Assembly: GCF_965279625.1 (NCBI RefSeq)
Contig: NZ_OZ257251.1
Coordinates: forward strand, 2,282,061-2,346,060
Length of the DNA: 64,000 nucleotides
Origin: Reyranella sp.
GTDB taxonomy: Bacteria > Pseudomonadota > Alphaproteobacteria > Reyranellales > Reyranellaceae
Direction: 5' to 3'
The notes beneath the pieces are model-generated. The model was not told the origin of the DNA. It saw nothing but the letters and a program-made list of their open reading frames with translations, and did no database searches. A program made the translations under genes and the position numbers. This document shows, in pieces, positions 5,334 to 51,120 of this stretch. How positions within the stretch are numbered: the first letter of the stretch is position 1; each line of letters opens with the position of its first letter.

Positions 5334-5411
5334 TGCTGGGGGCGCGCCACTCCAGTGGCGCGATCATCAGGCAAAAGAAAGACGCGCCACTGGAGTGGCG
5401 CGCCCCCAGCA
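5334..5411. repeat. REP/REPIN-like inverted-repeat element, family A copy 1
   Basis: Perfect 29-bp inverted repeat TGCTGGGGGCGCGCCACTCCAGTGGCGCG (5334-5362 vs 5383-5411), between convergent genes. Confidence 0.9.
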
Positions 5412-5415
5412 ATGA

Positions 5416-6630
5416 CTAGTCACCCGCGACGTCGCGCGCGCCGGGCGTGCGGTTTCGGAACTCCTCGGGGGCTTCGCGGCCGGCGTCTGTGAAGGCCTTT
5501 TTCACCGCGGCGACGTTGGGTCCGAAGATGCCCTTGCGGTTGTCCTTGGCCCACTGGTTCGAGTTGACGATCGTGTCGAGCGAGCCCTGGAAGCGCGGCA
5601 TCACATAGCGCGCGAACAGCTCGTAGGAGCGCAAGATCTGCTCCCGCGTCGCCCATTCGTGGGCGCGGAACAGGACGCCGCCGAAGCCGCCATTGGAAAA
5701 GCCCAGCAGGCGCTCGATGCCCTTGGCCACCGTGTCCGGGCTGCCGACCAGGGTCGTACCCATCTTCACGCCGTCGCGCAGTGGATCGTCGGCGCGGCCC
5801 GGCGGGCGGCCCAGCGTATCCTCGAAATAGGTCACGGTCTCGCGGCGCTCGCCGGCATGGACCTCGCGCAGCGCCTGCTCGTCATCCTCGGTCACGTGGC
5901 AGTTCACTACCACGCGCCACTTGGAACGGTCGGCGGTCTTACCGTGCTTGGCGGCGGTCTCCTCGTAGATGCCCCACTGCTTGCCGAGCATCTCCGGCCC
6001 GCCGGGGATGCCGGCGCCGATCGACAGTACGCCGAGCCCGTGCTTGCCGGCGGCGATCATGCCGGAGGGCGTGATGGTGCTGGCGCAGGCGATGGGGAAA
6101 TGCGGGTAGCTGTAGGGCGCGAGGTGCAGCCGGGCCTCCTTCAGCTCGAACCAGTCGGTCTTCATGGTGACCGGCTCCTTGCATTCGAGCAGGCGCATGA
6201 TTGCCTCCAGCGCCTCCTCCATGCGCGGCCGCTGGGTCGAGGGGTCGATGCCCATCATGTAGGCATCCGACGGCAGCGCACCGGGCCCGCAGCCCAGCAT
6301 GGTACGGCCGCGCGACATGTGGTCGAGCTGCACGAAGCGGTTCGCGACCATCAGCGGATGGTGATAGGGCAGGCTGGTGACGCCGGAGCCAAGGCGAATG
6401 TAGCGCGTGCGCTCGATCGCGGCGCCGATGAAGACTTCCGGCGACGCGATGGTCTCCCAGCCGGCGGAATGATGCTCGCCGATCCAGGCTTCGTCGTAGC
6501 CCAGCTCGTCGATCCACTCGATCAGCTCCATGTCGCGCGCCATCGCGAGAGTGGGATTCTCGCCGACGCGATGGAACGGCGCCAGGAAGATGCCGAACGT
6601 TAGTCCCTTGTGATTACCGGTCTGTGCCAT
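5416..6630 (-). CDS. Luciferase-like (LLM) flavin-dependent monooxygenase, LimB/CamP-like
   Basis: FGIFLAPFH, WIGEHH, TRYIRLGSGV and SLPYHHP motifs; GGAGG RBS. Confidence 0.9.
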   Translation of the reverse strand: MAQTGNHKGLTFGIFLAPFHRVGENPTLAMARDMELIEWIDELGYDEAWIGEHHSAGWETIASPEVFIGAAIERTRYIRLGSGVTSLPYHHPLMVANRFVQLDHMSRGRTMLGCGPGALPSDAYMMGIDPSTQRPRMEEALEAIMRLLECKEPVTMKTDWFELKEARLHLAPYSYPHFPIACASTITPSGMIAAGKHGLGVLSIGAGIPGGPEMLGKQWGIYEETAAKHGKTADRSKWRVVVNCHVTEDDEQALREVHAGERRETVTYFEDTLGRPPGRADDPLRDGVKMGTTLVGSPDTVAKGIERLLGFSNGGFGGVLFRAHEWATREQILRSYELFARYVMPRFQGSLDTIVNSNQWAKDNRKGIFGPNVAAVKKAFTDAGREAPEEFRNRTPGARDVAGD

Positions 6631-6707
6631 TGAAGTCCTCCGTCACCCGCGACGGTAGCATGCACGCGACGTTGACCGCAGCACCGGCTTGCGCAGATCA
6701 TCGATCG

Positions 6708-9056
6708 ATGACCGAGGCCTCTTCTCTCCCGCTCGCACGTTTCAAAATCGTCGAAGTGAACGACGCAAACGTGCCATTCTGCCTGCGTTTGGCGACGTCG
6801 CTTGCCGCAAAGATCGCCGCCGATCTCGGCGCCGACGTGCTCAAGCTCGAACCACCGGGAGGCGATCCGGTCCGGCGCGCGCCACCCTTGCTGCCGCAGG
6901 GCGAAAGCGCGCTCTTTCATTTTCTCAACACGTCGAAGCGGTCTCTGGCGCTCGATCTGTCGAGCGAGGCCGGTCGCGCCACGCTCGCCAATCTGGTCGA
7001 CGGCGCCGACGCCGTGCTGTTCGAGGAGACGGCTTCCGTTGCGGCGATATTGCGCGCGGGCAAGGCGACGCCGATCGAGATCGCCGCCTTCCCGATCGAG
7101 ATGGATGCGGCGCAACGTCCGGTCAGCGAACTGGTGATCCAGGCGCTGGGCGGGCTGATGCATATGGTCGGTGAGCCGGCGCGCAAACCGCTCAAGCTCG
7201 GCGGTCATCAGGCTTCGTATCCCGCCGGGCTCACCGCCTTCACCGGACTCATGTCAGCCCTCGCCGCGCGGGACACAGGACGCCGGGCGCCTCCGGTACG
7301 CGTGTCGCTCGCCGAGGTCATGCAGTGGGTGAACTGGAAGGCGGCATCCGGCGCTGCCGCGTCGGGCACCTCGCCCGGCCGAGAGGGCAGGAACTCGGAG
7401 TTCCAGGTCCTGCCTTGCCGCGACGGTCATGTCGCCGTCGTCTACACCTTGACGCAGTGGCCGGCGACGCGCGCCCTGGTCGGCGATCCCCGGCTCGACG
7501 ATCCGAAATTCAGCACGCGCGCCGGCCGTCGCCAGAACATCGCCGAACTCTATGCGGCGCTCGCGCCGTGGTTCACCGACAAGACCCGCGAGGAAATCCA
7601 GAAGGTCGCGCAGGCCAGGGGCGTGCCCTTCGGTCCGATCTTCTCGCCCGCCGAACTGCTGCAGACCGAGCAGTATGTCGCGCGTGGCTTCCTGGCCGAC
7701 ATGGCTCATCCCACCGAGGGCACGCTGCGCCTGCCGCAATTGCCCGTCCAATGGAACGGCCGCTCCTTCGCGCCACGGCCCGCGCCTGCCCTCTCTCCTC
7801 CCCATTCAAATGGGGTGGTGCCCTCGTCGCACGAGGGCGGAGGGGTCAGGAACGGCCGCTCGCAATTCATGCCCCCTCCGTCGCGGAAGACCGCCACACC
7901 TCCCCATTTGAACGAGGAGGAGAGGAGGAGTGGTGATCGTCCCCTCGCCGGCGTGCGCGTACTCGATTTCGGTCTGCTCACGGCCGGCGCGAACACCTCG
8001 GCCATGCTGGCCGATCTCGGGGCCGACGTGATCAAGATCGAGTCCGGGGCCTATCTCGATCCCTTCCGCGTCATCGGCAAGATCGACAATGATGAGGGCT
8101 GGTGGAACCGCTCGCCGCAGTTCCGCTTCACCAACCGCAACAAGCGCGGGCTGACGCTGAACCTCAAGGATCCCGAGGGCCAGCGCGTGATCCGCGAGCT
8201 GGCCGCGAAGTGCGATATCGTGGTCGAGAACTTCCGCCGCGGCGTGCTCGACCGCGCCGGCCTCGGCTACAAGGATCTGAGCGCCCTCAATCCGCGTCTG
8301 GTGTTCGCCGCCATCTCCAGCCAGGGCGATACGGGACCGGAGCGTATGAACGTGTCGTTCGGCAGCACGCTCGACGCGACCTCGGGCATCGCCTCGCTCA
8401 CCGGTTACGAGGGCGAGGAGCCGCGCATCTCCGGCATGGACGTGAACTATCCCGACCAGATCGTCTCGTTGTTCGCCACCGGCATCGTCATCGCGGCCGT
8501 CACGGAAGCGCGCCGCACCGGCCAGGGCGCCTTCCTGGATTTTTCCCAGCGCGAAGTCGCCTCGTTCACCCTGGGCGAGGAGATCCTCGCGGCTTCGGCC
8601 GATCCGAACCATCGGCTGGCGCCACGCGGCAATACCGAAGCGGGCGTGGCGCAGCAGAATTCCTATCAATGCGGCGACGGCAAATGGCTGGCCGTGACCC
8701 TCGACACAGCTGATCCGTCGATGGCGACCTTCTGCGCCGGCAAGGACCGCGACGCTGCACTGAATGCACTGCTGGCCAAAGGCATTGCCGTAGCGCCCTG
8801 CCTCGACGGCAACGACCTGCTGCGCGACACCGCGCTCCAGGGCGTCACGCTGGTGCGCGACGAGAAGGGCGGCCTCGTGAAGGGACTGCCCTACCGGCTC
8901 GACGGTGAAGGCCTCGTCATCGAGCGGCCGGCGCCGGATCTCGGCCAGCACACCGATGAGGTGCTGCGCGAACTCCTGGGCTACGACGATGCCCGCCTGA
9001 AGCAATTGAACGACAGCGGCGTGACCTCGACCACGCCCACCATCGGAGAGGTTTGA
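6708..9056 (+). CDS. Two-domain class III (CaiB/BaiF) CoA-transferase
   Basis: Two ADLGADV(L/I)K(L/I)E repeats, NxxKR motifs and C-terminal APDLGQHTDEVL. Start uncertain (6660 or 6708). Confidence 0.85.
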   Translation: MTEASSLPLARFKIVEVNDANVPFCLRLATSLAAKIAADLGADVLKLEPPGGDPVRRAPPLLPQGESALFHFLNTSKRSLALDLSSEAGRATLANLVDGADAVLFEETASVAAILRAGKATPIEIAAFPIEMDAAQRPVSELVIQALGGLMHMVGEPARKPLKLGGHQASYPAGLTAFTGLMSALAARDTGRRAPPVRVSLAEVMQWVNWKAASGAAASGTSPGREGRNSEFQVLPCRDGHVAVVYTLTQWPATRALVGDPRLDDPKFSTRAGRRQNIAELYAALAPWFTDKTREEIQKVAQARGVPFGPIFSPAELLQTEQYVARGFLADMAHPTEGTLRLPQLPVQWNGRSFAPRPAPALSPPHSNGVVPSSHEGGGVRNGRSQFMPPPSRKTATPPHLNEEERRSGDRPLAGVRVLDFGLLTAGANTSAMLADLGADVIKIESGAYLDPFRVIGKIDNDEGWWNRSPQFRFTNRNKRGLTLNLKDPEGQRVIRELAAKCDIVVENFRRGVLDRAGLGYKDLSALNPRLVFAAISSQGDTGPERMNVSFGSTLDATSGIASLTGYEGEEPRISGMDVNYPDQIVSLFATGIVIAAVTEARRTGQGAFLDFSQREVASFTLGEEILAASADPNHRLAPRGNTEAGVAQQNSYQCGDGKWLAVTLDTADPSMATFCAGKDRDAALNALLAKGIAVAPCLDGNDLLRDTALQGVTLVRDEKGGLVKGLPYRLDGEGLVIERPAPDLGQHTDEVLRELLGYDDARLKQLNDSGVTSTTPTIGEV
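7793..7924. mobile_element. Palindromic MITE/REP-like element lying in frame within the CoA-transferase linker
   Basis: 23-bp terminal inverted repeats with 21/23 match (7793-7815 vs 7902-7924), inner GGAGGGG/CCCCCTCC arms, length 132 bp = 44 codons. Confidence 0.75.
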
Positions 9057-12140: not shown

Positions 12141-12219
12141 GCTGGGGGCGCGCCACTCCAGTGGCGCGATCATCTCGGGAACCAGCAAAGACGCGCGACT
12201 GGAGTGGCGCGCCCCCAGC
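12141..12219. repeat. REP/REPIN-like element, family A copy 2
   Basis: GCTGGGGGCGCGCCACTCCAGTGGCGCG (12141-12168) with inverted arm 12192-12219 (one mismatch); near-identical to 5334-5411. Confidence 0.9.
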
Positions 12220-23609: not shown

Positions 23610-23697
23610 TGTCATCCTGAGCGCAGCGAAGGATCTAACGTCGGCTGTGGAGTACTTTGTTTGCTCCGCTAGGTCCTTCGCTGCGCTCAGGACGACA
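23610..23697. repeat. GTCATCC-type palindromic repeat, family B copy 1
   Basis: GTCATCCTGAGCGCAGCGAAGGATCT (23611-23636) with inverted arm 23671-23696, 24/26 match; between convergent genes. Confidence 0.85.
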
Positions 23698-42418: not shown

Positions 42419-42506
42419 TGTCATCCTGAACGAAGCGAAGGATCTCACGCCAGCACGGGAGTCCTTTGGTCGACGCGCAAGGTCCTTCGCTTCGCTCAGG
42501 ACGACA
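42419..42506. repeat. GTCATCC-type palindromic repeat, family B copy 2
   Basis: GTCATCCTGAACGAAGCGAAGGATCT (42420-42445) with inverted arm 42480-42505; between convergent genes. Confidence 0.85.
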
Positions 42507-51047: not shown

Positions 51048-51120
51048 ATTGTCATCCCGAGCGCAGCGAGGGACCTTTGAAACAACAGGAAGGGTCCCTC
51101 GCTACGCTCGGGATGACAAT
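51048..51120. repeat. GTCATCC-type palindromic repeat, family B copy 3 (inside the urease operon)
   Basis: ATTGTCATCCCGAGCGCAGCGAGGGACCT (51048-51076) vs 51092-51120, 27/29 match. Confidence 0.85.

Follow-up and report, generated by a model that had tools for sequence, protein, structure and literature searches.

A palindromic repeat translated in frame within the linker of a fused family III CoA-transferase of Reyranella

A two-domain CoA-transferase gene of Reyranella sp. carries, in the linker between its two halves, a 132-bp palindromic segment which is read through in frame as protein (positions 7793-7924 of the 64,000-nucleotide stretch of contig NZ_OZ257251.1 analysed here, called the window; all coordinates are window positions, copies of the element elsewhere are named by locus, L, and proteins by P). 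The history that we regard as probable, if some way from assured, is that one copy of a dispersed repeat family lies in the linker of an already fused gene, where it is translated as a tolerated spacer, and that it has been inherited, eroded and, in one lineage, lost together with fission of the gene. An initial annotation of the window had described the in-frame palindrome and its translation, likened it to the Rickettsia palindromic elements, and proposed that a selfish repeat had become protein linker and may even have joined two formerly separate subunit genes. The element is composed of the following features, the hairpins being given without a strand.

7793-7924, plus strand: palindromic repeat element of five hairpins, in frame, encoding 44 residues of the disordered linker (span of the family profile hidden Markov model, 7794-7923)
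7797-7818: terminal hairpin T1 (CCTCCCCATTCAAATGGGGTGG), matched as inverted and as direct repeat; family helix 1, 98.7% paired
7820-7838: hairpin 2 (GCCCTCG TCGCA CGAGGGC), a stem variable within the family with compensatory changes, four of its seven pairs being altered on both sides
7839-7879 (inverted-repeat match 7838-7880): central hairpin (GGAGGGGTCA ... TGCCCCCTCC) with a variable loop; family helix 3
7880-7897: hairpin 4 (GTCGCGG AAGA CCGCCAC); family helix 4, with five of seven pairs altered on both sides
7899-7920: terminal hairpin T1' (CCTCCCCATTTGAACGAGGAGG), matched as direct repeat; family helix 5, partly decayed in the window copy

The palindromic segment was borne out in every detail, that is, in its arms, its inner hairpins, its predicted fold and its departure from chance. 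Two inverted arms of 28 nt (7793-7820 and 7897-7924) are 89% complementary, so that the terminal inverted repeats first described are indeed present, with the refinement that both ends consist of one and the same self-complementary 22-nt hairpin, T1 (CCTCCCCATTCAAATGGGGAGG), for which reason they score as direct and as inverted repeats alike. The single-strand fold predicted for 7785-7932 (148 nt) reaches -88.1 kcal/mol, whereas shuffled sequences give -57.7 on average (z -7.1), none of 200 being as good, and the terminal 21-mer CTCCTCCCCATTCAAATGGGG, absent from all 100 shuffled windows, occurs in the real window only at the two ends of the 7793-7924 element. The window element is not an assembly artefact; positions 7746-8033 are recovered without any difference in contigs from four public sequencing runs (X1-X4) of the same organism. 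In these runs the T1 end (7751-7832) has a contig depth raised 1.5- to 2.6-fold, and therefore other sequences in the same samples share this end. A look for RNA-seq runs containing sequence of the organism returned none.

From the point of view of the protein, the open reading frame (ORF) 6624-9056 crosses the element without a stop and translates it as LSPPHSNGVVPSSHEGGGVRNGRSQFMPPPSRKTATPPHLNEEER, the same peptide as had been read off initially. Since the frames used are open and the length is a multiple of three, the element is translated as a 44-residue spacer rich in Pro, Gly and Ser, of which TATPPHLNEEER is an example of a tryptic peptide. The atypical codons noted at the outset are likewise found: an index modelled on the codon adaptation index is 0.407 for the 44 element codons, the lowest in the gene (windows off the element have a median of 0.647 and a minimum of 0.428), and rare codons make up 27% of the segment compared with 12% of the rest of the gene. 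In an AlphaFold2 model built on a 65-sequence alignment, residues 366-408 form the only internal segment with a predicted local distance difference test score (pLDDT) below 50, and the element encodes residues 363-406. On this model the encoded peptide would be a floppy, disordered linker that the enzyme tolerates as a passive spacer. The peptide itself is not conserved, only the continuity of the frame, because different lineages read different frames with different deletions. As orthologues annotated as single proteins also carry the element, the proposal that a repeat became protein linker stands.

The host gene is divided as follows.

6708-9056, plus strand: fused two-domain family III CoA-transferase gene, 782 aa, with the start inferred at ATG 6708 (the mechanical ORF runs from GTG 6624)
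6708-7792, plus strand: N-terminal CoA-transferase half (D1), with Gln at the position of the catalytic Asp
7925-7940, plus strand: remaining native linker (RRSGDR codons), preceding the conserved PLAGVRVLDFG start of D2
7941-9056, plus strand: C-terminal CoA-transferase half (D2), retaining the catalytic Asp motif STLDATSG

The Pfam domain CoA_transf_3 (PF02515) matches on both sides of the element (1.1e-138, in three stretches), and orthologues of 752-790 aa, one of 779 aa among them, are annotated as single CoA transferases. The whole model has a pLDDT of 90.4 and a predicted template modelling score of 0.92; in Foldseek, SUGCT, BbsEF and FRC each cover one half of it with target-relative TM scores of 0.78-0.81, and the PDB sequence matches are SUGCT, BbsF and FRC. 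At the position of Asp169 of FRC, D2 has Asp (STLDATSG) and D1 has Gln (ELVIQALGG), replaced by Ala in D1 of distant fused homologues, and the catalytic Asp is missing from D1 in every fused homologue examined. Judged from these sequences, the host protein is probably a single-chain pseudo-heterodimer of long-standing asymmetry with one active site, given that only D2 keeps the catalytic Asp. It can be seen as the single-chain equivalent of the two-subunit family III CoA-transferase BbsEF (PDB 9fn0), with halves that superpose on BbsE, BbsF, SUGCT or FRC chains, but it differs from BbsEF in that the halves are fused and the N-terminal one lacks the catalytic Asp.

The element has many relatives, most of them outside genes. 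In a species-representative genome collection the terminal 21-mer is present in 109 stretches, drawn from about 40 assemblies, nearly all of which are Reyranella, Rhodospirillales or unclassified Alphaproteobacteria, and searches of the fetched loci with blastn and an iterated nhmmer profile found 135 places, including 89 full-length copies (about 120-135 bp) that are 75-85% identical to the window copy. The search for further genomic copies thus returned many intergenic ones. The window itself holds a single family copy by both 21-mer and profile searches of its 64 kb, whilst one 367-kb contig (NZ_SCVC01000030.1) contains the exact 21-mer in at least nine 8-kb stretches, and complete genomes have one or two exact matches each when searched by exact matching only. 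Rfam has no family corresponding to positions 7000-8700, the sole match being a plant miRNA at chance level (E 0.05, far under the gathering score), and a literature search on Reyranella repeats turned up nothing relevant; the family appears to be specific to Reyranella and its relatives, and apparently undescribed. Several element-bearing assemblies carry other labels, namely Rhizobium sp. Q54, Asaia bogorensis, Candidatus Binatia and Candidatus Kuenenia (CAMDOT01, with L038, L003, L021 and others; CALRZP01, with L040, L060 and L079; L087; L089), yet their element is of the Reyranella type and L038 bears a Reyranella-type operon too; these contigs look like mislabelled or mis-binned metagenome-assembled genomes (MAGs). 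Several MAG contigs end in or beside a copy (L063 at 14-34, within a CoA-transferase linker; L059, L057 and L089 at the locus ends), which indicates that the repeat breaks short-read assemblies.

In an alignment of 58 copies, used for counting pairs on the five-hairpin structure, the family architecture consists of T1 (CCTCCCCATTCAAATGGGGAGG), hairpin 2 with its variable 7-bp stem, a central stem (GGAGGGGTCAT...ATGACCCCTCC) with a variable loop, hairpin 4 and T1 again. The right half is an imperfect reverse complement of the left, and the element is thus an inverted pair of half-units. Standard pairs fill 95.2% of the cells counted, compared with 86.8% when the 3' partners are shuffled and 44-57% when they are slid, and both partners have changed in 192 cells, where shuffling gives about 60 and sliding 20-52; the five helices are 89-99% paired across the copies. 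Compensatory changes fall mostly in hairpins 2 and 4, as exemplified by pair 30-42, which is GC in 32 copies, CG in 20 and AU in five. The flanks of 60 full-length copies showed no direct repeat, and hence no target-site duplication. The initial picture of a mobile, selfish repeat therefore survives as regards a dispersed palindromic family with many intergenic copies, and not as regards mobility, for which neither a target-site duplication nor a transposase came to light.

Third-position G+C was taken as the coding signal for deciding whether copies are read through, and by this measure a frame that is coding on both sides crosses only CoA-transferase copies (the window, L002, L038 and L059, with L097 cut by the locus end). 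Intragenic copies are thus confined to one locus, the CoA-transferase linker, among the 89 full-length copies, 84 of which lie elsewhere. Around these 84, the analysis measured 87 gene ends. For 84 of the ends, between 1 and 38 nt separate the stop codon from the edge of the element (median 8 nt), and for the other three the stop codon falls within it. Copies lie between tandem genes in 36 cases, between converging genes in 16 and between diverging genes in only two. In tandem pairs, the copy has the orientation of the flanking transcription in 26 cases and the opposite one in 10, the strand calls differing by just 0-7 bits in this near-symmetric element. The outer GGGGAGGAGA (GGAGG) of the terminal hairpin often falls 2-13 nt upstream of the ATG of the next gene, in the position of a ribosome-binding site, and at many copies GGAGGAGA is found at this same distance ahead of the ATG. 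L077, considered as a second CoA-transferase with an in-frame copy, was ruled out, its copy being an ordinary one 13 nt upstream of the start codon. A protein-database search with the element peptides in three frames returned only 30 short ORFs (55-169 aa), and missed the known CoA-transferase positives as well, so that it does not speak against other in-frame hosts; the element also gives rise to spurious small ORFs in annotation.

One arrangement deserves separate description. At L106 (4548-4673), and also at L001 (864-993), a copy lies between hyuA and hyuB, the subunit genes of a hydantoinase/oxoprolinase. In L106, the reading frame of HyuA continues for 53 nt inside the element (…SAPPPHSNGEVPASSRAEGS*) before ending at the central-stem TGA, so that the element supplies its 17 C-terminal residues together with the stop; past this stop the same frame is open across the remainder of the element (…LTPPSRMTAPPPHLNGEE…) into hyuB. 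A single indel would, to judge from this sequence, fuse the two genes through the element. L106 and the fused CoA-transferase L097 are on the same contig.

Among CoA-transferase orthologues, the element is found at the same boundary (RPAP plus two codons) in clade A, whose proteins are 86-91% identical to that of the window, and in clade B (73-77%); copies at this site include L002, L038, L059, L097 and L063, together with proteins P0001-P0068. The linkers are of several types: the window type, with the left half in frame +0 and the right half in +1; the L113 type, in +0 throughout; hybrids of the two; and variants with at least five different in-frame internal deletions in clade A, or with short linkers holding one T1-like hairpin in clade B. 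A sliding-window comparison gave no sign that the clade A linker was gained from clade B by recombination. A comparison of L002, of clade A, with L038, of clade B, gives an element identity of 88.6% (89, 91 and 86% for the three codon positions), whereas the flanking four-fold sites reach 63%; non-orthologous copies, L042 (86-92%) for instance, are at least as close to the linker copies as these are among themselves. This conservation, for which selection on the peptide cannot account, could reflect a structural constraint across the family, self-correction of the palindrome, or gene conversion.

Outside the Reyranella clade, all fused homologues lack the element. They reach about 30% identity, out to Chloroflexi, and P0078-P0120 are fused through short linkers. 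P0078 (46% identical) has the same NMO gene downstream, and P0071 (67% identical) has a different long linker and the full synteny of the conserved cluster. Distant fused orthologues thus do without the 44-residue sequence, other genomic copies exist, and the alternative foreseen at the outset, an old linker shared by distant orthologues with no copies elsewhere, is not what is found. With element-free fused homologues at 30-67% identity, and with D1 lacking the catalytic Asp in every fused homologue examined, the two halves had most probably been fused before the element arrived, and the suggestion that the element joined two separate subunit genes is disfavoured.

That two-gene, element-free orthologues also exist makes the direction of change a matter of phylogeny. 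They are represented by L158, L123, L170, L146, L134, L154, L129, L111 and L114. Three indel-prone contigs gave the first hint of the element-free form, the halves lying in different frames in two of them, L111 and L114; a metagenome scan with the junction motif then found seven Illumina-assembled contigs with the split arrangement. L110, with an apparent in-frame short linker, comes from an indel-prone assembly and was set aside as evidence. At the junction, gene 1 ends in ...RPAPSLERAELAA*, followed by GGAG-N8-ATGA, in which the TGA stop overlaps the ATG of gene 2 (M-x-x-PL-x-G-VRVLDFG); the 35 nt from the RPAP codons to CCCCTC are conserved and contain no element. The two-gene form is real and conserved. 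Compared by eye, window positions 7925-7940 resemble the start region of gene 2 in the split form (TGA-TCGTCCCCTCGCC in the window and TGACTCGTCCCCTCGCC in L158). A family half-unit (T1 plus hairpin 2) lies near the split-type CoA-transferase genes of L114, at 1279-1330, and split-form genomes thus carry the repeat family as well.

The split forms share the derived residues LLMPQ and GVS and the same junction, and can thus be taken as one clade, S. By neighbour joining with a close outgroup, S joins clade A in 72-99% of bootstraps, and a grouping of A with B is never obtained. Likelihoods of eight topologies were compared over 666 columns under a simple custom-written Poisson+F+gamma model, with P0071 as the close outgroup. 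The best is ((A,S),B), with a log-likelihood (lnL) difference of 0 and a support of 0.58 by resampling of estimated log-likelihoods (RELL), whilst trees with an A+B clade are worse by 25-34 units (z 1.9-2.3, RELL 0.006 in total). Since likelihood thus puts the split forms next to the clade of the window and among the element-bearing genes, fission would be derived. There are no informative indels outside the linker, and quartet site counts are too few to decide. An attempt to see the split junction as an eroded element was given up, the similarity (p 0.01-0.12 against shuffles) being too weak for the call.

The history given at the outset would then run as follows. A copy would have arrived once, by insertion, in a common ancestor of A, B and S whose gene was already fused, the fused state being presumably continuous before and after its arrival. 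Read through in its open frames, it would have supplied a disordered spacer of 44 residues that the enzyme tolerates, and would have been inherited at the same site by orthologues now 73-91% identical, eroding by several in-frame deletions. In the sister lineage S, the element would have been lost and the gene split into two translationally coupled genes. With the tree ((A,S),B), and with the same boundary and frame pattern in A and in part of B, the simplest history has two steps, an insertion and then, in S, loss with fission.

Several observations weigh against this history and should be stated together. The normal site of the family is a stop/start junction, so that insertion into an intact ORF is exceptional and confined to one locus. 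No target-site duplication was seen and no transposase was identified, whole genomes not having been searched for one, so that the insertion is deduced from the distribution of copies. A tree in which S is paraphyletic to A is only 3.2 lnL units worse than the best (RELL 0.31), the internal branches at the A/B/S node are short, and neighbour joining with the distant L115 outgroup, alone or with NMO, is unstable. The 35-nt split junction aligns collinearly with the element at no more than marginal significance (p 0.01-0.12). Finally, a passive spacer does not explain why the linker copies are conserved above neutral sites.

The alternative that fares best, which we nevertheless consider unlikely, is a proximate form of the joining proposed in the initial annotation: having diverged from P0071-like relatives, the stem lineage would have had two separate genes, the element would have landed at the stop/start junction, and read-through would have re-fused the halves, with S keeping or regaining two genes. 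A transient split followed by re-fusion is mechanistically plausible given the family's stop/start niche (an element within 1-38 nt of 84 of the 87 measured gene ends) and the arrangement at L106, one indel away from fusion via the element. The split orthologues are moreover real, with a junction conserved in the seven Illumina contigs, L111 and L114, the 130-nt consensus leaves a remainder of 1 on division by three, the very shift required to bring the frame of gene 1 into that of gene 2, and in clade A the sequence directly 3' of the element resembles the start region of gene 2. However, the outgroups are without exception fused and element-free, P0071 of the same operon among them, so that an extra fission and an extra fusion would be needed; likelihood rejects a clade of all element-bearing forms that excludes the split ones, such a tree being 25 lnL units worse (z 2.2, RELL at most 0.006); clades A and B share the left boundary and the frame pattern, so that the state of being fused with the element predates their divergence; and 20 nt of the gene 1 tail (ERAELAA) are found on neither side of the element. 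A wider idea, that stop-proximal palindromes with open frames and GGAGG act as couplers and uncouplers of operon genes, read-through fusing and decay splitting them, is to us improbable as well; the linker copy would then be a fossil of a fusion, L106 a fusion in waiting, and the split clade with its ATGA overlap the reverse step.

Repeated insertion or gene conversion at a single hot spot, rather than one inheritance, could also have produced the A-type, B-type and solo-T1 linkers, which we hold to be quite unlikely. It would suit the difference between L113 (B-type) and L038 (A-type), which share a host clade and are unlike in T1, at four base pairs of hairpin 2 and in the frame read through the right half, as well as the lack of any closer kinship of the linker copies to each other than to copies such as L042 and an element identity far above that of neutral sites. 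Nonetheless, the left boundary is identical in all variants, no fused orthologue with an empty site was seen within clades A or B, and neutral-site divergence is near saturation, so that compensatory drift could also remodel a 7-bp stem. The least credible alternative, that the hairpins are kept at the nucleic-acid level for a translational pause, for mRNA protection or as the binding site of a protein recognising the family, agrees with a conservation equal over the three codon positions and well above four-fold sites, with hairpins largely intact despite long divergence, with a very stable predicted fold and with the family-wide covariation, which shows that structure matters somewhere, but it is opposed by at least five in-frame partial deletions in clade A, the solo-T1 remnants in clade B and the full loss in the split clade, from which it follows that the host gene manages without the full structure.

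The CoA-transferase is part of a conserved cluster, which comprises genes for a Lactamase_B_2 protein, a luciferase-like monooxygenase (minus strand), the CoA-transferase, an NMO-type oxidoreductase, a zinc alcohol dehydrogenase and a Lactamase_B protein. This cluster is bracketed by a second palindromic family (GCTGGGGGCGCGCCACTCCAGTGGCGCG ... complement), with arms of 28-29 nt that are 96-100% complementary: one copy (5334-5411) fills the gap between the converging Lactamase_B_2 and monooxygenase genes, and the other (12141-12219) sits 12 nt past the Lactamase_B gene. A third palindromic family (TGTCATCCTGAGCGCAGCGAAGGA... and complement) has three copies in the window, at 23610-23697, 42419-42506 and 51048-51120, with arms of 31-32 nt that are 84-94% complementary.

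Having an in-frame repeat in Reyranella extends the notion of selfish DNA inside proteins, best known in the obligate intracellular Rickettsia, to a free-living, G+C-rich alphaproteobacterium. The clear covariation and the tight association with stop codons make the family attractive for investigating how repeats select their sites, or persist there, whilst the series at the CoA-transferase locus (fused without the element, fused with an intact one, fused with an eroded one, and split) is suited to the study of linker evolution, fusion and fission in multi-subunit enzymes. At the practical level, the repeat disrupts assemblies and yields spurious small ORFs in annotation.

When compared with known systems, the element first recalls the Rickettsia palindromic elements (Ogata et al. 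2000), which are often intragenic, nearly half of the R. conorii copies being so according to PMC10969869. Shared with these is a palindrome of about 100-150 bp in an alphaproteobacterium, lying in frame in a metabolic gene and translated at a site tolerated by the fold. The parallel drawn in the initial annotation thus holds for the phenomenon of in-frame residence, but it does not extend to the habits of the family: the Reyranella host is free-living with about 67% G+C, the likeness drawn is one of phenomenon, and intragenic copies of the family, among 89 full-length ones, are limited to a single locus, the rest keeping close to stop codons. Moreover, its peptide is not conserved and its frame differs by lineage, and the frequent in-frame insertion that marks the Rickettsia elements is not seen.

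A second comparison is with intragenic copies of enterobacterial repetitive intergenic consensus (ERIC) sequences and MITEs (miniature transposable elements with inverted repeats), which give in-frame fusions (Delihas 2007, as cited in PMC10969869). These too are small non-autonomous repeats with an open frame, found occasionally inside an ORF to which they add a peptide. As in MITEs, terminal inverted repeats are present in the Reyranella family, each end being itself a palindrome. The family differs in that the flanks of 60 copies show no target-site duplication and no parent insertion sequence was identified, whole genomes not having been searched, and in that the CoA-transferase copy is fixed, has been inherited over many species and marks the point at which the gene was later split in one lineage.

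The repetitive extragenic palindromic sequences (REP) of gamma- and other proteobacteria, with their composite forms, the REPINs and the bacterial interspersed mosaic elements (BIMEs), share more with the family: imperfectly palindromic units, two of which stand in inverted order on either side of a short variable spacer, an extragenic location at the 3' ends of genes and between converging genes, stems kept by compensatory change, and no target-site duplication seen. They differ from it in that the Reyranella half-unit consists of two hairpins plus half of a long central stem, which gives five hairpins per element, and in that its terminal hairpin carries GGAGG, which often lies so as to be the putative ribosome-binding site of the next gene. 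By location and build, the family is closer to REP, REPIN and BIME sequences than to a classical MITE. The copy in the CoA-transferase linker is a further example of the known phenomenon of selfish DNA within a protein, to which the covariation of the family, its link to stop codons and the series of fused, eroded and split forms at one locus lend added interest.

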